A stretch of 63,277 nucleotides of DNA, the filler included, from Sphacelaria rigidula (lineage: Eukaryota), in assembly GCA_964200075.2 (NCBI GenBank). It is 10 parts of 10 records of this genome, joined end to end, with 100 filler letters (N's around TTAATTAATTAA, not from the genome) between each part and the next. Parts side by side here need not be neighbours in the genome. Positions count along the whole stretch, not along the records: positions 50,704 to 56,940 come from CAXNAA020021316.1; 9 more parts are not named here. One strand, 5' to 3'. The notes below the pieces were generated by a model. The model was given only the letters and a program-made list of their open reading frames with translations, had not been told where the DNA came from and ran no database searches. Each line of letters opens with the position of its first letter. Position 1 is the first letter of the stretch. The translations under genes and the position numbers were made by a program. This document shows, piece after piece, positions 6,240 through 57,120 of the stretch.

Positions 6240-6339
6240 NNNNNNNNNNNNNNNNNNNNNNNNNNNNNNNNNNNNNNNNNNNNTTAATTAATTAANNNNN
6301 NNNNNNNNNNNNNNNNNNNNNNNNNNNNNNNNNNNNNNN
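6240..6339. other. Artificial 100-bp contig spacer (N-TTAATTAATTAA-N); also at 12578, 18916, 25254, 31592, 37930, 44267, 50604 and 56941
   Basis: Identical spacer with stops in all frames. Intervening segments are 6239, 6238 (x5) and 6237 (x4) bp. Confidence 0.98.
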
Positions 6340-12576: not shown

Positions 12577-12677
12577 CNNNNNNNNNNNNNNNNNNNNNNN
12601 NNNNNNNNNNNNNNNNNNNNNTTAATTAATTAANNNNNNNNNNNNNNNNNNNNNNNNNNNNNNNNNNNNNNNNNNNN

Positions 12678-16545: not shown

Positions 16546-16783
16546 CCGTGATTGTGCAAGTCATCGCACACACCCTGGACCGAACTTCAAAGCTCGATTA
16601 CTCGACAACAAGAAGAGCATAAGTTCTAAAAAGGGTGACGCTGGAAAGATCTCGTCGGTAGCTGTCCGAAAACGCGTCGTNNNNNNNNNNCGCGTCGTTT
16701 GGTATTGACAAACCTTTTCGTCATGGAGTAGTCGAGCTGTGAAATTCGGTCCATGGGGTGTGCGATGACTCGCACAATTACGG
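16546..16783. mobile_element. Tc1/mariner-type MITE
   Basis: TA|ccgtgattgtgcaagtcatcgcacac ... gtgtgcgatgactcgcacaattacgg|TA; about 55-bp TIRs; 10-N gap inside. Confidence 0.8.
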
Positions 16784-18304: not shown

Positions 18305-19811
18305 TAGGGTAAGGAGGTTGCACAAAAAAGCGTACCCGCAATCAGGTATCTTATCAAGAGCGTACCCGTGCCCCCCGGTAACGGTTCGGGAGTCTTCCAG
18401 AGATTACAGAACTCTCGGGTAGAGGTATGAAAGTCTTACAGAGATTACAGAACTATCGGGTAAGGGCATGAAAGTCTCAAAGAGGTTACAGAACTGTCGG
18501 GCACCGGTGTGAAAGTCTTACAGCAGTCACAAAACTGTCGGGTGAGGTAAATACCCGGCAAAATACCCCGGGTATACAGAAAACCGTACAGAACACAACA
18601 ACCTTGGAAAATACGATAATTCTGAAAATACCTCCCTGTCCCCCGACCCTTCCCCCTGAATTTCAACCGAAGAAACAGCCCCCACGGAAACTCTTCCACT
18701 CGTAGACAGATAGAATCCCCAGGTGAAAAGAAGATCGGTTCTCTTCTTCGGCTGGATAGGTTAACCCCCCCTGCCAGATCCTCACCCTCGTCGTTATATT
18801 CGCGGCTCTCGAGACGAGATCGGGGGGGGGGGGGGGGGGGGGTCGTAATTCCCACACGCGAATTTTTTTGGCCACAGTTTTGTGGTTGCTGGAAGATGCA
18901 AAACACAGAAAAAAANNNNNNNNNNNNNNNNNNNNNNNNNNNNNNNNNNNNNNNNNNNNTTAATTAATTAANNNNNNNNNNNNNNNNNNNNNNNNNNNNN
19001 NNNNNNNNNNNNNNNATGTGGGCGAAATGGCTGCAAACGAGCCCAATAGTGGGATCGCAGCCGATTTGTCGGACGGTCTCCGGTGCACTTCTTGTGGGGG
19101 GGGGGCTATCTCGGCATTAGTCAAACGTTCCCGTAAGTTCAACGTCTTCTGGAAACTGTCCACCTTGGGATTTCTTTGGAGTCTACGCAAAATGATACAA
19201 CACAAGTACCGCTTCATCCCTGGTTTTCAAAAACCGATATCTCGATACATAATCGACCGGCAACGATATCGTCGTGGGACGTCGATTCTGACAGCATATT
19301 CTGTGACCTCGACATGGATGATTGCAGAGACCATTGAATAATCACGGAAATGGCGCACCTTTTGTGTCGGCGGTCATATGACCGACCAAAACATCGCGAC
19401 AAAATGGGACCAGAATTGGTCGCCGCCTGCCTCTGAAAGTGATGATGCCGACACGTGCTACGTTTCATTTCCGTTCCGACACGAGGTCTCAGATTACCTC
19501 GAAGAGGGACCTTAACCCCTTGACTGTAATGATATCCATCTCATTCAGTCCAGGTATTAAAAACATCACTCGTGGGCCTTTCACGCTCCTACAAGACGAA
19601 ACGGTATTCAAATCACGTAGTGCGAATCACATGCCGAGAGAAGCGACGGGGAAGGGGGCGTACTCATTTGTTGCTTGCCTTAGTCGTTTGACCAATGACC
19701 ACGCATCCCTTTCGAAACGGAGCATGGGGAAGGGGGGGAGGGAGTGGGGAGGAGGAAAAAATACACAAGGGGGGCAAGAGTAGCGCCGGGTCAAGGCTGC
19801 AAACTCCTGTA

Positions 19812-46001: not shown

Positions 46002-46690
46002 GCCGCCGCGGCCCGGTGGTCCACTGGTCTGACTGATAACATTAGGGTGGAGATAACGTGGTTTCGGTTCCCGCCAGATGTGTTCGGTTGTTCTTCAAAG
46101 TCTCTGATTTCCACCATCGAAGGTGTGGGGATGTGAACAGAAAAAAAAAAGTTGACTGAGTTTATTCTACGACAGAAGAAAGAGGTTCAACTCAAAAGCA
46201 TGGCAACTGATCTTTACATGGACGACCTCATCCCTCCCGACCTCTCTAAGACTATTTCGGGGGGCTTCCAGTCTTCCGTTTGCCCAAAGGCTATGTGCGA
46301 GAGCACATTTTTGCCTCGATTTCGGGGTGAAAAAAGGGACCTATTTTGGCCCCAAAAAAAGTCCTTTCGCACATACCCTTCGCGGGGAGGGGAGACTAGA
46401 AACCCCCCCGAAATAGTTTTAGGGAGTTCGGGAGGGATGAGGTTGTCCATGTGAAAGTCACGTGTCATGACTTTAGGTCCAGGGAAGCACGGCCTTTGAG
46501 TTGAACCTCATTTGTTTTTCAACCCCATTTCTGAGAATTCGCTGTTGATCGCTGATGCGGTGCGGGAAATCCGAACCCATCCGCGAGACCAATAAGCGGG
46601 GCGTGTACTGGGGAGAGATAGGTTGATCCCTTGAGAGCGCATTCTCGTCCGGAGGAAGGGAAATGACCTAGAGTGTGACAATATACATAC
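46002..46690 (+). mobile_element. Degenerate SINE split by a MITE
   Basis: Head gccgccgcggcccggtggt and body atccgcgagaccaa match the 30722 family; ends gtgtgacaatatacatac. Confidence 0.65.
46182..46509. mobile_element. MITE with GAGGTTCAACTCAAA termini
   Basis: Perfect 15-bp TIRs plus an internal inverted repeat of about 50 bp; no clear TSD. Confidence 0.8.
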
Positions 46691-46842
46691 AGAGGTAAAC
46701 AAAAATCCGCTGTAAAAATCGGTTCACCTGATAATATCATTATTGACTGTAGCAAAGTATCCATGTATTTTCTATGCCGCTCGATCTACGTCTCCCCGAG
46801 TTTGACGCAATCGAAGATGTACAGCGCTGGGCATGGGCGATT

Positions 46843-46889
<47 letters not shown>
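46843..46889. repeat. (TTG)n microsatellite
   Basis: Direct observation. Confidence 0.95.
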
Positions 46890-47211
46890 ATCGTCTTCAC
46901 ATCAAAAACCGTTCCGATATCTGCGCGGTACACTCGTACTGGGCATCTGATGCGGACGCCTTCCATGGTCACAGGGTAGCAAAAATATTTTCGACGCGGA
47001 CTTCAAAGGAGGCAAGTACACACCATATAGTCGGTGCTTATTTTCAAGCGCGATACCTACACGTGCGGGTCTTCCTGCCATTGCATCGTGCAGTACCATC
47101 ACTCCATCGACTCTGAACGGGAACTAAATTGAAGGGGGGTACGTCTGCACGTGTTGCACGTTCAGCGTGATGGGCCTTATAAAGCGGCTACTATTGTTTC
47201 ACATGCGGTAG

Positions 47212-49759: not shown

Positions 49760-50603
49760 CATCCTCATAGACGACTACCACAGCCGTTCGGAGAACGGCG
49801 GCAGCGAGTGTGTTGCCCGAATGGACTACAGGTTACTTTTTGAAGGCCCTCGGTCGGCACTGGGGGAGCTCAAGAGGCAGTACAGCCAACAACTCCTTAG
49901 CTTGGCATGCGTTGGTCCAAGCCGTCATGTACAAGCTAGCCCCTACCTTTACAACTCGAGACCATTCGGACACATCTTGGGCAACCTGCGTCCACGATAT
50001 CGCGTGTATCCCGAAGTATGAGCAGTAGCCGGTGATACAATGTTGTAGGCGCCTTGCGGGTCGGCCTACCCTCCTATCCCCTTCAACCATCACTCCATGC
50101 ATAACTATGTTGGGGAGGCGGTCATCGTGCATGCGCACAACGTGGCCGGCGTGTAAGAGGGTCCGCTTCATCACGGTGGCCTCAATGCACTCGCAGTTGG
50201 TTCGTTCGAGGACTTCGTGGCACGGCAGCATGTGGTAGTCAGGGGCGCTGCGGCTGGAGGTATGTTTGTTGNNNNNNNNNATGCGCCGAAATTGACTTGT
50301 GCGATCGTCAAGGTCGCGCAGCCGTACAACATCATCTCGATCACTTCAGTCTTCAGGAGGCTGATCTTGGTGGCCAGGGCGATGTACCGGTTGTCGTGGA
50401 CCGCTTTGCTGTACTTGTACAAGCACGCCCAGGCCTGGCCAATGCGGCTATGGATCTCAGGTATGACAGCACCGATGCTGCTGATTCTCCTGCCAAGGTG
50501 AAGAAAAGATTCAACTTGCTTGTATCGTTGGCCAGCTGCCTCCACCTCGACCCTATCCACTTCCATTCCTGGGGAGCGCATGTGCATGGTTACCGTCTTC
50601 TTT
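49760..50603 (-). mobile_element. RTE-like LINE 3' fragment (RT thumb and C-terminus)
   Basis: QVESFLHLG, EIHSRIGQAW, MLYGCA and LLHAGHVVRMHDDRLP...GRP motifs; frameshifted. Confidence 0.8.
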
Positions 50604-51076
50604 NNNNNNNNNNNNNNNNNNNNNNNNNNNNNNNNNNNNNNNNNNNNTTAATTAATTAANNNNNNNNNNNNNNNNNNNNNNNNNNNNNNNNNNNNNNNNN
50701 NNNCACCTCCAAAGGGTGCGGTGGTAAAGGGTCAAACCCACTGGCCAACCACCCAAGGAGGCCCCCCCCCCCCCCCCCCCCCCTGTGATGACCCTGCTGC
50801 AGCAGCATTCTCTCTGTCGCCTGCTAACTCCACGACTGATGTTTCAGTCCACTCTGACCCACGTGCCCATATGCGACCGAGATACAATTATGATGTTCAT
50901 CTATCTCTCACATGGTCACGGCCTAAGGTTACCTTTGCTGTTTAATTGATGCAGGGTGCTGCTGGACTGGTTAACTGGTCTCCGTGAAGAGGTTTGTGAC
51001 AGTGTGGATCGCAGTAGCAGAAGCACCAGCGGTACGACCGCGGCTTTGTACCTTCTCTAGTGCAGTCGTGGAGGGG

Positions 51077-53827
51077 ACGCCTAGGTTGTGCACACACACG
51101 AGTTGCATCACGTGAGCATCATACGGCATAGCGGGTAGCAGGGAGGTGGAGTTCTGCGCCGCACACGCCGGAGCGGGCATGGTCAACATGACGAACAAGC
51201 GGTGCAGTAAGGAGGGCTGCTCCACAAGACCATCGTTCGGTGCGGCTGGTAGCAGGAAAGCGGAGTTCTGCGCTGCTCACGCCCGAGCGGGTATGGTCGA
51301 TGTGAGGCACAAGCGGTGCGTCAAGGAGGGCTGCTCCACACACACATCGTTCGGTGCAGCTGGTAGCAGGAAAGCGGAGTTCTGCGCCTCACACGCCCGA
51401 GCGGACATGGTCGATGTGAATAAGAAGCGGTGCAGTGAGGAGGGCTGCTTCACATACCCATCGTACGGTGCAGCCGGTAGCAGAAAGGCGGAGTTCTGCG
51501 CCCCACACGCCCGAGCGGGCATGGTCGATGTGGTGAGCAAACGGTGCAGCGAGGAGGGCTGCTCCACAATACCGTCCTTTGGTGCAGCCAGTAGCAGGAA
51601 GGCGGAGTTCTGCGCCGCACACGCCCGAGCGGGCATGGCCAACGTGGTGAGCAAGCGGTGCAGTGAAGAGGGCTGCTCTGCAAGAGCATCTTTCGGTGCA
51701 GCCAGTAGCAGGAAGGCGGAGTTCTGCGCCGCACACGTCCGAGCGGGCATGGTCAATGTGAAGAGCAAGCGGTGCAGTGAAGAGGGCTGCTCTGCAAGAG
51801 CATCTTTCGGTGCAGCCGGTAGCAGGAAGACGGAGTTCTGCGCCGCACACGCCTCAGCGAGCATGGTCGATATGGTGAGCAAGCGGTGCAGCGAGGAGGG
51901 CTGCTCCACTCAACCATACTTCGGTGTAGCCGGTAGCAGGAAGGCGGAGTTCTGCGCCGCACACGCCCGAGCTGGCATGGTCGATCTGAAGAGCAAGCGA
52001 TGTGGCAAGGAGGGCTGCTCCACGAGACCATCGTTCGGTGCAGCCGGTAGCAGGAAGGCGGAGTTCTGCGCCGCACACGCCCGAGTCGGCATGGTCGGTG
52101 TGAGGCACAAGCGGTGCGGGACGAAGGCCTGCTCCACACTGCCATCGTTCGGTGCAGCCAGCAGCAGGAAGGCGGAGTTCTGCGCCGCACATGCCCGAGC
52201 GGGCATGGTCGATGTATCGAGCAAGCGGTGCGGCAAGGAGGGCTGCTCCACTCGACCATCGTTCGGCGCAACCAGTAGCAGGAAGGCGGAGTTCTGTGCG
52301 ACACACGCCCGAGCGGGCATGGTCAATGTGATAACTAGGCGGTGCGGCGAGGAGGGCTGGTCTACAACCCCATCGTTCGGTGTAGCCAGTAGCAGGAAAG
52401 CGGAGTTTTGCGCCGCACACGCCCGAGCGGGCATGGTCAATGTGAAGAACGAGCATTGTAGCGAGGAGGGCTGCTCCACAATACTATCTTTCGGTGCAGC
52501 CGGTAGCGGGAAGGCGGAGTTCTGCGCCGCACACACCCGAGCGGGCATGGTCGATGTGGGAGGCAAGCGGTGCGGCGAGGAGGGCTGCACCACAATACTA
52601 TCGTTCGGTGCAGCCGGTAGCAGAAAAACGGAGTGCCGCGCCGCACACACCCGAGCGGGCAGGGTCGATGTGGTGAGCAAGCGATGCGGCAAGGAGGGCT
52701 GCTCTGCGAGAGTATCGCTCGGTGCAGTCGGTAGCAGGAATGCGGAGTCCTCCGCTAGACACGCTCGAGCAGGTGTGCTTCACGCGAAAAACGAGCAGTG
52801 CGGCAAGAATGGCCACTCGAACCAATCATCGGTCGGTGCAGGAGCTGGCAGCAAGGTTGAGTTCTGCGCCGCACACGCCCAAGCGGGCACGGTCGACGTG
52901 ACACGAAGGCAGTGTGGGAAAAAGGGCTGCTTCGTGGTACCGTCATTTCGGGTAGCCTCTCGCAAGGAAGCGGAGTTCTGCCCTACACACGCCCGTCCAG
53001 GCATGGTCGATGTGGTACGACGGCGGTGCGGCAGAGAGGCCCGCTCCACACGACGGTCACCCGGTGCAGTCGGTGGAAGCGATGCGGAGTTATGCGCCGC
53101 ACACGCCAGCGCAGGCATAGCCTCCATCAACGGCAATTACTGTGCCTCGCTGCATCATTCTATCCTGGTTCGGGAGGACGGAAATATCTATCATCATGCT
53201 CCATATGGCTTGGTCAGAGGGTCTGATCCCACAGGACATGTCCGAGAAAAAAACTCAGCGAGTGATGCCTTGGTCGCGGGAGAGACTGGTGTCGGTATCG
53301 ATGATGGAGATGGAAAATCTAGCTATCCACCTCATGGCGGTCCCAACACGAATGACGGTGGTCGTGACGCTGAGTCTCGTCCCAGCTTGCGTGTCATCCG
53401 TGTGAGGGAATGGGGTGCAAATTCCACGACCACGTCGCCTTCCCCCTCGAAGCAGCCCCCCGGCGCGATGGCAGCAGATAGGGTTACTCCAGGTGGGTCA
53501 GAGATGCGCAGGGAAATCAAAATGGAAACGACTGTTGCGCCTGCGCGAGTTTTCGAGGGGATCCAAACTAGCAAACGAGTTACTGCGCGATCCAGCAGGT
53601 GCGACGGCATGAGCGGCTCCAGCAGGACTACCACAAGCAGTAGCATCACCAATAGAAGGAACACGAAGCGGCTTCGCCGGACGACCCAGGTGCTGCCGGT
53701 AGTTGACGTGGAAGCCGGGGATGATGGAGTGTCTGAAGTTAAAAGAACCGACGTGAAGTTGGAACTGAACGTGTCGTCCCCGTCTCGTCACGCGTCCGCG
53801 GCCTCATTCCGCCTGGGAAAGAGGTAG
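51077..53827 (+). CDS. Intronless EsV-1-7 cysteine-rich repeat protein (18 x 38-aa repeats plus low-complexity C-terminus); 5' end disrupted
   Basis: 114-bp repeat encoding C-x4-C-x4-SFG-x7-EFC-x2-H-x3-GMVDV. Open from 51116 to 53827, with an in-frame TGA at 51113 in repeat 1. First in-frame ATG at 51179. Confidence 0.9.
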
Positions 53828-55722
53828 ATTGAATGGAGGGCCCGTGCACGCCTTTTTCCCGGCATATGTTCGACAAAGCGTTGTTGCACCGTATCTGTGG
53901 TGCGCAAGTCGTGATTTTACTCGAATCTTTGCCGTGCATATCGGTTTATTTGTTTTCAAGTCAAATCGTGCAGCTATCTTCGGTCGGTGGCTTGGGAGGC
54001 GGACGCCGCTGAGTCGTTTTTTTCGATGTATGTGTGGTGGCGGATTATCTGCAGCACTGGTTTCCGAAACATGATGAAATTGCAATCTGCATCTTCTAAT
54101 GGTCATGCCATGACCTTTTACTCGTTACCGCGCAGAAAGGGTAGCCATGTGCCGTACCGCCGCGTCCCAGTGATGCCACGTGTTCATGCAGAATCGATCA
54201 GGGCGAAATGTTTGGGCTTGGAATCCCGGTGGATACGTTTCCTTATATCTATGTGATTTCCGTCTTCGAAAACGTGAGGGCATGAGTATTCGGGAATATC
54301 TGACGACAGCCGGCAAGGTGTGGGAGTGCTGATCTCAGCGGTGATACCAAAATGCTGGGAATTCACCACGGGAAACATGGGTTGATCCCTCGAGACTACA
54401 AACTTCTCCCGAGGTACGGGGTGGGTCGAGAGGATAACGAAGATTAGCGCAGTCAATGCGCTGCTTGTGCAGCCATTGATTGCCTCTCCAGATACAGGGT
54501 GGGATACTTGTACCTAGCGGCAAGAAAGCGCAGCTGGAGGGTACATCTCCACTAGGTAGCAGGAGGCTTCGAACTGTTTGGGAATATTGACATGAGATGG
54601 TCACGTAAAGCGCAGTGGTACGACGCACATGCATCATGTTGAACGATAACGCGCACCTTTAGTTACGGTTGAGTATGTGCGACATCCGTGCCCGCCTGTA
54701 AGCTATGCACCTGTGGGAATATCGAGGTTGTCAGTGTCATGAAGTTAAGAATCACCCACACCAAAACCGAGTTTCAAACTGCAATATGAGTGCGGAAACA
54801 GGACAGTTCGAGCAAACCCCAACAGTTAGACACGGAGTGTTTCGCAGCCGACACTTGGATTCCAATTTTCAAATTGGCTGTTGTCTCAGGCTCTTCCACA
54901 TTCGGCATTGGACTTCTGTGACAGAAAACACTCTCAATTGTTTCGAAATACTTGGGGAAAAAAAAGTCGAAAAACTGGTCGCAACATGACCCCATTATAT
55001 GGAGTACAGGTTACTTCACTGAAAACAAGACAACTCTGCAGTGGTGTATGGAGCACATAATACCACATTGAACCCAAGACAAGACAACACAGCACAGGTT
55101 CTGCAGTGTTTAACTTAAACACGGACTGTACGCTAGAAGCCTACATCGCAGAGATGCGAGTCCATTCTCAGCTACCACCGCAACCCTGCAGCGTTGAGCA
55201 CGAGTCAAGCACCGGGATAGATACACTGCAGTAGCTGGGTATGCTTTGTTATTTTTGCTTGGCGAAAACTTGCTCGTCTTGTCTCATGGTGGTCATCAGC
55301 GACAGAACTGCGTGGTACGGTGGGCAACCGAGTTGCGTGCACGCCCATGGATAGTGCAGTGTGTACAAAGCAGCACGTTGCTGAAGTCCTGATCACGTCG
55401 CATTGTAAGTGATGCAAGTGGGGAGAGCTGATAGTCCTTGACTGCCTGGACTGTATGTTGCCTACATCGCCTTCATATCCTGCTGGACGAAACACGCACA
55501 CACGCACTCAAGACGGTCTGCTTGCAAGCGGTGCTTGGTGCTTACAAGCGGTGCAGACAGTACAGACTGTGTGTATTGTACACGAGTGACCCTGTGCTGT
55601 GTCACGAATTTCACTGAATTTGTTATATCGGAAGCTTGAACATCCATCTGAACCCACCTGCATCAAAACGAGATTGTTTTGCTCAGATTGATTCCACTGC
55701 TCCACTTTCTCGATCGAAAAGA

Positions 55723-56192
55723 CAGACCCTAGACACAACAAGGCAACACCACACCTACACACCAAGCCCCGAAATAACACGCACAGACACCCACCACTCA
55801 CGCGCATTAGTTTTACTGCTAGCCCTTGCTTATCTACACACAACAGGCTTTGTTTGACAGCAAATCAAGCCGCCGCTGCTCATAAGCTGTGCACGTTGTG
55901 CGTGACCTTGCTCAAGTCTGTTCAAAATTCAGTGAGAACTGATCATTTGTGTGAGACGCGCGCGCAGCACGGGCTTACAACACGATCAGCAACGACACGT
56001 TTTGGGTTGTTCTTGACACACATGTAGCCGCCATTCGTCCAATATATAACGGATTTCTGTCAAACAAAGACTGCAGTGTGTAGATTAGCAAGGGCTAGCA
56101 GTGAAACAAATGCGCGTGAGTGGTGGGTGTCTGTGCGTGTTATTTCGGGCGTGGGTGTGTAGGTCTTGTGTTACCTTGTTGTGTCTTGTCTG
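55723..56192. mobile_element. Fold-back element with about 140-bp inverted arms
   Basis: cccgaaataacacgcacagacacccaccactcacgcgcatt...ctgctagcccttgct is mirrored at about 56085-56150. Confidence 0.8.
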
Positions 56193-57120
56193 CAGCATTG
56201 CACAGACCTTGGACCTGCTTGGACTAACGACCACTTCCAGACCCGCCGCATTTCTCGATCTGCGTGCAGATCTGGGTTCGAATCTGTACAAAACTGCTTG
56301 TCGATAGGACTGGGGACTGGTCGTTATAGGGCCAATCCCTGTGAAAAGGGGATAATCCTCTTCGTTACACCTAGACCGCGACGGGGGTGACCTGCTGAAT
56401 TGGCATCAATTTTCACTTGAAAAAGGGATGCATGATCCAGATGGACTACCCGCTTCGCGATCGAAGGGTTAACCCTTTAGACAGCGACCTCCCCCGCTGG
56501 TAGACCGGCCGGCGTATTTCTACCCCCACGGGCAGATTCCCTGAACGTACCCCCAAACTAGAACCAGTTCTGCAGCACGTTTGAGCAGACCCGCCGGTCG
56601 GACTAACACATTTTTGAAAGCACCCCCAGATAAGGGAGCCCACACACGATTCACGCGCGGCATATAGTACGCCACGCACACGAACAGCACCATAGCCCAC
56701 ACACACGGATAGCATCATAGCCCTCAGACAAATGTAAAGACGAAACGCCATCAACTAGTGGCAAAAGAGCAGCAGCCGTTCACATCATCACATATACGCT
56801 TAGCAGGCAGCCGACCCAGCTACTTTTGTACATGGTCAGTACATACAGACAGTACGGTATCCAGGAGAGTTCGTATAAACATAGAACAACAAATTGTGCG
56901 AATTGAGGTTTAACTCCGAAATGAGATTCAAGCCTAAAACNNNNNNNNNNNNNNNNNNNNNNNNNNNNNNNNNNNNNNNNNNNNTTAATTAATTAANNNN
57001 NNNNNNNNNNNNNNNNNNNNNNNNNNNNNNNNNNNNNNNNTATTAAAATGAAGACTAGCAACGTGAGTTTGAGAGTTTGGGGACGGCAACCACAAACCAC
57101 CGTCACTGGATGGGAAGGGT

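Follow-up and report, generated by a model that had tools for sequence, protein, structure and literature searches.

Why would a tandem repeat array keep its scaffold nearly uniform while a few residues change in almost every repeat? The question is raised by an EsV-1-7 array gene in a 63,277-nt stretch of DNA (the window, meaning the whole stretch analysed), which consists of 10 parts joined with 100-letter fillers; the gene lies in the part from 50,704 to 56,940, which comes from record CAXNAA020021316.1 of Sphacelaria rigidula (assembly GCA_964200075.2). A first-pass annotation of the window had stated that EsV-1-7 repeats are shared with the Ectocarpus virus EsV-1, that brown algae have an expanded family of them, with IMMEDIATE UPRIGHT (IMM) among its members, and that it knew of no established ligand, all of which agreed with the literature we found. 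It had also described two hypervariable patches on a fixed Cys/His scaffold and read them as a candidate recognition code, one repeat to one nucleic-acid or protein target, possibly against transposons or viruses. We found that this observation was correct and that its interpretation was partly supported. The variation was concentrated in three residues per 38-amino-acid unit, and the same three positions stood out across the family. Our tentative proposal is that together they make a contact patch specific to each unit, for which nucleic acid would be the likeliest ligand. The features that carry the argument are the following.

51179 to 53827, plus strand: proposed intronless coding sequence of 882 amino acids plus stop, made up of an EsV-1-7 array and, after it, a conserved tail.
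51191 to 52672, plus strand: core array of 13 well-kept 38-amino-acid units, in the phase x16-x17-K-R-Cys1...G-M-V-D-V.
51191 to 52597, plus strand: hypervariable codons recurring every 114 bases (k = 0 to 12), with x16 at 51191+114k, x17 at 51194+114k, and x28 at 51227+114k.

Here x16 and x17 are the two linker residues before K-R-Cys1, and x28 is the third residue after Cys2. Every string quoted in the first-pass annotation was present, both after Cys2 (STRP, STHT, FTYP, STIP, SARA, SARA, STQP, STRP, STLP, STRP, STTP, and STIL) and in the linker (TNK, RHK, NKK, VSK, KSK, SSK, ITR, KNE, and GGK), as were the codon swaps aga/cac/tac/ata/caa/ctg/acc. The two patches were real anatomy, but narrower than had been thought. 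Among the 13 best units, entropy was 2.82 bits at x16, 2.20 at x17, and 2.44 at x28, with the next position at 1.55, and the linker lysine was conserved, as was the S-T that follows Cys2.

The rate of change at these codons was measured in the 13 units from 51146 to 52627, with the 5' unit carrying a stop and the decayed rows at 52628, 52742, 52856, 52970, and 53084 left out. Ranked by diversity, the top three among 114 nucleotide sites were the second codon positions of x16, x17, and x28 (pi of 0.79, 0.76, and 0.60), compared to a mean of 0.19 and a maximum of 0.53 at 15 fourfold degenerate sites. Non-synonymous diversity (pN) at the three codons was 0.577, versus a synonymous diversity (pS) of 0.27 across the array and 0.42 locally, and the scaffold had a pN/pS of 0.34 among the 13 units. 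On a tree built without the three codons, Fitch parsimony placed 31 changes on their six first and second positions (5.2 per site), compared to 1.13 per site at the fourfold sites (maximum 3) and 1.83 at neighbouring third positions. The non-synonymous sites of the three codons had thus changed about 4.6 times as often as the fourfold sites, an excess with a Poisson P of 1e-11 against fourfold sites and 6e-7 against third positions (Mann-Whitney P of 2.5e-4). Since the codons had been chosen post hoc, all 38 codons were also simulated as neutral and the top three taken from each run. None of 1000 runs reached 31 changes, whether the rate was set to the fourfold mean or to that of the local third positions; the null maxima were 22 and 29. 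By diversity, Fitch counts, and simulation alike, the variation was not spread evenly at neutral rates, in keeping with the first-pass annotation, and the position-specific signal in this array is statistically solid. Either the three residues diversified after a recent burst of repeats or their differences were maintained as the remainder of the unit became homogenised; as we read the array, both histories would imply selection.

The pattern was not confined to this gene. A search with the unit profile returned 7689 representative proteins at E ≤0.001 and 4518 at E ≤1e-10; no relatives were found in the viral and metagenome contig sets searched. We sampled 198 family proteins (64 in a first set and 134 new ones) and extracted units by a strict pattern that dropped other spacings, which left 1050 unique units in 187 of the 198. 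Across the 112 arrays with at least six units, mean within-array entropy was highest at x16, x17, and x28 (2.02, 2.04, and 1.98 bits), with the next position at 1.76. The three positions ranked among the top three of their own array in 44, 43, and 40 of the 112 arrays respectively, against 20 for the next position, and they led in both subgroups of the family, as they also did in a smaller set. Hypervariability at these positions is a family property, and its sharper contrast in the window array is due to the uniformity of the scaffold there. The vocabulary was large: the 1050 units used 638 distinct x16/x17/x28 triplets, at a perplexity of about 473. Of the x17/x28 pairs, the five most frequent (62, 58, 46, 46, and 44 occurrences) together made up 256 units, or about 24%, and by mutual information with average product correction x17-x28 ranked 16th of 703 column pairs.

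Positions that differ between the units of one protein can be merely tolerant, or they can be specific to each unit, and comparison of orthologous units bears on the difference. Reciprocal-best matching gave 25 orthologous unit pairs, which came from 5 independent protein pairs of the 48 examined, the remainder yielding none that cleared the margin. Between orthologous units the three positions mismatched in 16 of 75 cells (0.21), versus 0.206 at the other non-ligand positions (Fisher P of 0.88), and were well below the fastest positions at 0.44 (binomial P of 3e-5); by mismatch they ranked 15th, 8th, and 21st of 34. Between units of the same array, mismatch was 0.81 to 0.83 at the three positions versus 0.50 elsewhere. 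A second orthologue set of 27 unit pairs agreed. To vary between units and be held between orthologues is the signature expected of unit-specific specificity residues. The three positions also avoided acidic residues. Asp and Glu together accounted for 14 of 1050 residues at x28 (1.3%), 40 at x16, and 61 at x17, compared to 9.5% overall, and the neighbouring positions K18, R19, and 27 were mostly Lys or Arg. Acid exclusion, taken with conservation between orthologues, indicates that the three positions are not merely tolerant.

Structure prediction suggested how two separate patches could act as one. AlphaFold2 models reached a predicted local distance difference test of 91.7 and a predicted template modelling score (pTM) of 0.60 for two units, and 84.4 and 0.45 for six units. 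Secondary structure assignment of both models with the program DSSP gave each unit a strand at S-F-G, a one-turn helix of three residues at Cys3-x2-His, and a closing strand at M-V-D, with a beta-bridge from R19 (the Arg before Cys1) to x28. Given this bridge, x16/x17 would lie on one arm of the Cys1/Cys2 hairpin and x28 on the other, and in the models the two patches would make up one small surface per unit. Foldseek comparison of the six- and two-unit models to the PDB returned nothing at E ≤0.001, the best match being the zinc-binding domain of coronavirus nsp13 (E of 0.64). The wide fold search VIA gave nothing at Z ≥2 for six units and at best a Z of 2.3 for two units (the RING of IDOL), and the array sequence had no significant match in the PDB and no usable match in the Atlas. 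The modules being small, the missing fold match is not proof of a new fold. As for metal, the literature we found goes only as far as proposing EsV-1-7 as a possible new class of zinc finger.

Two further likenesses concern the metal site. P0012, P0036, and other family proteins matched the Pfam model Zf_WRKY19 (PF24906; best E of 5.2e-13), and some matched CoV_NSP13_ZBD. Zf_WRKY19 is a zinc-finger model of land plants, and the EsV-1-7 family is described as absent from land plants. The Cys3-x2-His-x4-Met stretch (51152-51184, F-C-A-A-H-A-G-A-G-M-V) resembles the copper loop of plastocyanin, Y-C-x-P-H-x-G-A-G-M-V. Its Met is near-invariant family-wide, plastocyanin was the top PDB sequence match of the unit profile at a non-significant E of 0.16-0.25, and one family member weakly matched Pfam Copper-bind. 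This likeness is probably due to chance or convergence.

What accompanies the array in other proteins bears on the ligand. A conserved C-terminal domain of about 190 amino acids followed the array in 94-97 of the 198 family proteins (P0008, P0009, and P0014 for example), with a median of 8 units before it. It consisted of a C-x2-C...C-x2-C element followed by RPD...E.DE.QH...C.CE..RM...F.R.NPD, and was also found as stand-alone proteins of 170-240 amino acids, all labelled "hypothetical protein". Its look-alikes in the Atlas were clusters of Nucleocytoviricota, one of which had been automatically named "Endonuclease (Fragment)". By our reading, the RPD...E.DE.QH...NPD motifs resemble the core of PD-(D/E)xK-type nucleases, and the domain is possibly nuclease-like. 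A search of genome contigs with this domain gave one match, in an archaeal record, which lies in a short frame opposite a methyltransferase-like open reading frame (ORF) and was taken as chance. A Tudor-type domain was present in one relative of the window gene, and a reverse transcriptase in one. In Ectocarpus, a Tc1/Mariner transposase is reported to have gained an N-terminal EsV-1-7 domain (PMC12477816).

The case for nucleic acid as the likeliest ligand is indirect, and is made up of the basic, acid-poor patch and this domain company. The mechanism we propose is as follows. Each 38-amino-acid unit would be a small module stabilised by a metal ion, in which a beta-hairpin knuckle holds Cys1 and Cys2 and is followed by the S-F-G strand, a loop, the one-turn helix of Cys3-x2-His, and the G-M-V-D-V strand, and only two residues would link consecutive units. 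The array would have expanded or been homogenised inside the gene so that its scaffold became near uniform, with x16, x17, and x28 driven apart or kept apart between units. These residues would lie on two arms of the same hairpin, beside conserved Lys/Arg and nearly free of Asp/Glu. If the patch is exposed and contiguous, the array could serve as a string of individually tuned binding modules, perhaps read out one by one on nucleic acid, and the conserved tail could be a separate effector or localisation part.

The gene itself was examined next to its array. A frame from 51116 to 53827 was open for 903 codons from stop to stop and was the only ORF longer than 300 amino acids in the window; 51179-53827 is the probable coding sequence. 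Its remaining parts are listed below.

51032 to 51145, plus strand: decayed 5' repeat remnant, RLC-THTS-C-IT*-ASYG...EVEFC, with Cys1 at 51089 and an in-frame TGA at 51113-51115.
51179 to 51181, plus strand: probable start codon, the Met of a G-M-V motif, giving MVNM-TNKRC just 5' of the first intact unit.
52673 to 53128, plus strand: four 3' units, three with a lost ligand (Cys3 to Ser, Cys2 to His, Cys2 to Arg) and one intact (52901-53014).
53132 to 53824, plus strand: non-repeat C-terminal tail of 231 amino acids, with conserved blocks and no family in a Pfam search.
53825 to 53827, plus strand: stop codon TAG.

The ATG at 51179 was the first in frame 3' of the TGA, and no in-frame ATG was found upstream of the array. 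The start of the protein, four residues before the first unit and without an N-terminal non-repeat region, matched three relatives that begin at the equivalent Met (MVNV-PSKRC, MLN-VNKRC, and MVDV-KNKQC). The TGA of the 5' remnant coincides exactly with the hypervariable x28 codon, which is AGA in most intact units, and the remnant is probably untranslated leader or a dead unit.

The first-pass annotation had counted 18 tandem repeats. With the frame cut every 38 amino acids from 51032 (the final row being mostly non-repeat), 18 units were indeed recognisable, though only by counting decayed ones, and the exact C-x4-C-x16-C-x2-H was found in 12 of them. A ligand was lost or shifted in five units, one by a Cys to Trp change inside the well-kept stretch and the other four all within the final six units. 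The core array had intact Cys3His sets in 11 of 13 units, the exceptions being the units at 52331 (Cys1 at 52343, Cys2 to Trp) and 52559 (Cys1 at 52571, Cys3 one residue early). The other three had Cys1 at 52685 (Cys3 to Ser), 52799 (Cys2 to His), and 53027 (Cys2 to Arg). Tandem Repeats Finder reported a 114-bp period from 51130 to 52901 with 15.5 copies and 81% matches, and its rows of 228- and 342-bp period extended the array to 53118. Pfam matched EsV_1_7_cys (PF19114) in 15 stretches, at 660.5 bits versus a cutoff of 25 (E of 4.2e-204).

For all 12 strict units of the window gene, the nearest unit lay inside the same array, and each compared protein had a private scaffold consensus of its own, which together point to expansion or homogenisation within the gene. 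With 12 strict units versus 4-7 in the relatives that share its tail, the window array has grown. The tail was common to only three S. rigidula proteins among 64 compared. It was 48%, 43%, and 39% identical to the corresponding tails in P0001, P0004, and P0005 (blastp E of 3e-47, 2e-31, and 1e-29), and alignment with these relatives showed conserved blocks ETT.AP, R.TK.LR.T, DV.AG.D, and VK.EL.VS; the basic block R.TK.LR.T resembles, by our reading, a nuclear localisation signal. P0001, P0004, and P0005 showed like decay in the units just before their tails, so the decayed 3' units are an old trait of the subfamily and not the sign of a dying copy. By its sequence, the gene in the window is genuine, and it adds to the known EsV-1-7 family a new member that is both long and young.

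Sequencing reads of the same organism also touched the array. Run X1 had depth in 30 of 30 bins, and its exact-match contigs covered 52530-52782, 52754-52872, and 52866-53014 among other places. Contigs of this kind cannot show transcription, ends, or levels, the "RNA?" labels of the four runs are guesses, and the contig joints have short sides. In X1, X5, X7, and X8, thousands of short contigs lay on the repeat core 51172-52692 at ≥95% identity. X1 placed 2362 contigs there, 1234 of which fitted two places of the stretch. These reads suggest many near-identical EsV-1-7 repeats in the organism, which fits a recently expanded family.

The setting is gene-poor host DNA and not a provirus. None of the 40 other ORFs of at least 130 amino acids in the window had a Pfam family. 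A proviral setting was ruled out because the window held no other long ORF or viral family, and Pfam gave no support to reading the upstream minus-strand ORFs as remnants of a reverse transcriptase. Nine identical blocks, each made of 44 N, TTAATTAATTAA, and 44 N, recurred about every 6338 bases (6240-6339, 12578-12677, 18916-19015, and so on to 56941-57040) and look like an inserted spacer or mask, not biology. Because one of these blocks (50604-50703) is 475 bases from the proposed start, on its upstream side, the promoter region is incomplete. Two further short runs of N were present at 16681-16690 and 50272-50280. A run of about 27 C upstream of the gene (50766-50792) and a microsatellite at 46850-46890, which reads as poly-Cys in one frame within an ORF at 46679-47116 (no Pfam family), had no evident tie to the gene.

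Several points weigh against reading the three residues as a nucleic-acid contact patch. At the fastest fourfold rate (3 changes per site), the simulated P was 0.23. Silent diversity was uneven, being higher around codons 14-22 and 26-31, and pN at the three codons was only about 1.4 times local pS. The rate excess comes from one array of 13 units and depends on the neutral proxy, and Fitch counts on a single tree would be inflated if units had exchanged segments. The orthologue comparison is small, with its 75 cells and usable unit pairs from 5 of 48 protein pairs. The array is only mildly basic (104 K+R versus 54 D+E), and basic residues near Cys3His could balance the charge of the site rather than bind a polyanion. 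The geometry between units was not predicted with confidence (pTM of 0.45 for six units). The tail of the window protein had neither an RPD nor a KPD motif, and the nuclease-like domain was missing from 15 of 15 brown-algal-named proteins. The nuclease reading of that domain stays at the level of motifs, with no match in searches of Pfam, PHROGs, NCBIfam, and PDB sequences. Signs of decay were present, namely the stop in the 5' unit, the Cys to Trp change in an otherwise good unit, and the loss or shift of a ligand in five units. Finally, within reach of our searches, the literature gave no ligand, structure, or specificity positions for any EsV-1-7 member.

Three other explanations were weighed against the same evidence. 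LIM, B-box, RING, and PHD-type modules, like ankyrin and leucine-rich repeats, present variable surfaces to protein partners, and the array could be a protein-protein recognition scaffold of this kind, with one variable hairpin or loop per zinc module and no nucleic acid involved. Vocabularies as broad as that of the triplets are characteristic of repeats that bind proteins through their surfaces, x28 and x16 often hold hydrophobic residues (I, V, L, and Y), and the weak fold likenesses lead to protein-interaction or mixed zinc modules (the RING of IDOL at Z 2.3; B-box, LIM, and PZP at E >1), yet every one of these fold matches is below significance. IMM, the only member with a phenotype, is described as a developmental regulator with unknown biochemistry. 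Depletion of acidic residues at the three positions beside conserved Lys/Arg argues the other way, as do the recurrent fusions that join arrays to a transposase, a reverse transcriptase, a Tudor-type domain, or the domain that is possibly nuclease-like, and we consider a protein scaffold a rather unlikely but serious alternative. It is unlikely that the three positions have no part in recognition, being simply the most substitution-tolerant surface positions of a structural repeat, with the sharp contrast in this array a product of concerted evolution or of an underestimated neutral rate. Such an explanation would draw on the modest contrast of ordinary family arrays (2.0 bits versus 1.6-1.76 at the next positions), on the uneven silent diversity and the low ratio to local pS, on the simulated P at the highest fourfold rate, and on the 12 mutually nearest units, which homogenisation predicts. 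Gene conversion without selection, however, would have erased the three positions too. Tolerant positions should be the fastest between orthologues, whereas these fell in the middle ranks at 0.21 versus 0.44; Asp and Glu are nearly excluded from x28, and no simulation at the mean fourfold or local third-position rate reached the observed total.

A decaying pseudogene, that is, a dead copy of an expanded family in which the variation reflects decay, is the least probable of the explanations and in our view very unlikely. The in-frame stop in the 5' unit and the want of an in-frame ATG upstream of the array would fit it, together with the Trp in place of Cys2 in an otherwise intact unit, the five units with altered ligands, and the gene-poor surroundings. 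The frame nevertheless stays open for 882 codons, 231 of them in a non-repeat tail that is conserved with three relatives, and the scaffold pN/pS of 0.34 is low. Relatives share both the start Met and the decayed units before the tail, so that this decay is older than the window gene. Decay should moreover spread evenly, yet the changes cluster on three codons. The contact patch thus remains the reading we put forward, with the reservations given above.

In a broader proposal, EsV-1-7 arrays would form a class of their own among modular readers of nucleic acid, with three specificity residues per Cys3His unit, two ahead of Cys1 and one behind Cys2. Giant viruses would couple these arrays to a nuclease-like domain, brown algae would have expanded the reader alone into hundreds of regulators, and the 18-unit gene would be a recently re-tuned case. 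As a whole this is speculative, and we hold it to be distinctly unlikely. If true, the giant-virus proteins that join an array to the nuclease-like domain would be natural "zinc-finger nucleases" or homing-type elements. The brown-algal expansion and clustering of EsV-1-7 genes, with unknown function, have already been described in preprints. These rank the family among the most remarkable amplifications in brown algae, and according to one of them the largest orthogroup in its data set consists of EsV-1-7 genes. What the window gene adds is a favourable natural experiment, in that a young and near-uniform array exposes which residues change. It yields a concrete proposal in which each unit has three named residues, a basic hairpin poor in acidic residues is the candidate surface for contact, and nucleic acid comes first among the ligands to consider. 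A second and independent approach to the function of the repeat is offered by the possibly nuclease-like domain that roughly half of the family proteins sampled carry.

Compared to its own family, the window gene shares the spacing C-x4-C-x16-C-x2-H, the commonest among relatives (271 Cys3His patterns in 64 proteins), and the 38-amino-acid period, with 133 successive-unit spacings of 38 amino acids in relatives and 20 of the next commonest. Its best named relatives are brown-algal (Sphacelaria rigidula and Ectocarpus). The array is long, since only 7 of the 198 sampled proteins have at least 12 strict units, with a maximum of 16; its 15 Pfam stretches equal the maximum among the best 150 of the profile search, and its scaffold is unusually uniform. 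The window gene, with no non-repeat region ahead of its units, does not have the IMM-specific N-terminal domain by which, in the published definition, orthologues of IMM are recognised. Array proteins of the giant-virus type share with the window gene both the repeat and its three most variable positions, but their RPD...NPD domain is absent from the window gene, whose tail is unlike theirs.

SBP is a DNA-binding domain of plants and green algae, and the spacing of its Zn-1 site is the same as that of the window unit. Positions 1-36 of the 75 in the Pfam SBP model aligned to units of a six-unit segment with a summed 32.1 bits (cutoff 27), but no single stretch was above threshold, and the whole window protein reached 18.4 bits against the cutoff of 27. 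The window units are without the second zinc site of SBP. The only SBP structure returned, 8j49_A, ranked 18 with an E of 8.1 for the six-unit model and was not returned for the two-unit model. SBP was missing among the 25 families listed for 84 other members and from the PDB sequence searches. The Zn-1 site of SBP is Cys-Cys-Cys-His (PMC10796333), and the match, on the profile scores, amounts to resemblance only.

The first-pass annotation had drawn a parallel to the repeat-variable residues of transcription activator-like effectors (TALE) and to C2H2 fingers; its TALE half did not stand and its C2H2 half did, as a likeness of logic. TALE, PUF, and PPR proteins are helical solenoids of 34-38-amino-acid units, with near-identical young arrays, two or three specificity positions, and a small code. 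The window units, in contrast, are predicted to be zinc knuckles with a large vocabulary (638 triplets in 1050 units), and their models show short strands and a 3-residue helix without a confident regular superhelix. C2H2 arrays, including the fast-evolving KRAB-type ones, are tandem metal modules with a large vocabulary, changing array length, and clustered expansion. The window units differ from them in being Cys3His with another spacing (zf-C2H2 was not among the Pfam matches), in being predicted as mostly beta with a one-turn helix instead of beta-beta-alpha, and in having their greatest variability in the linker, which in C2H2 arrays is conserved. The window gene is thus not a member of the C2H2 class, and what it has in common with C2H2 arrays is a few hypervariable positions carried on a fixed scaffold.

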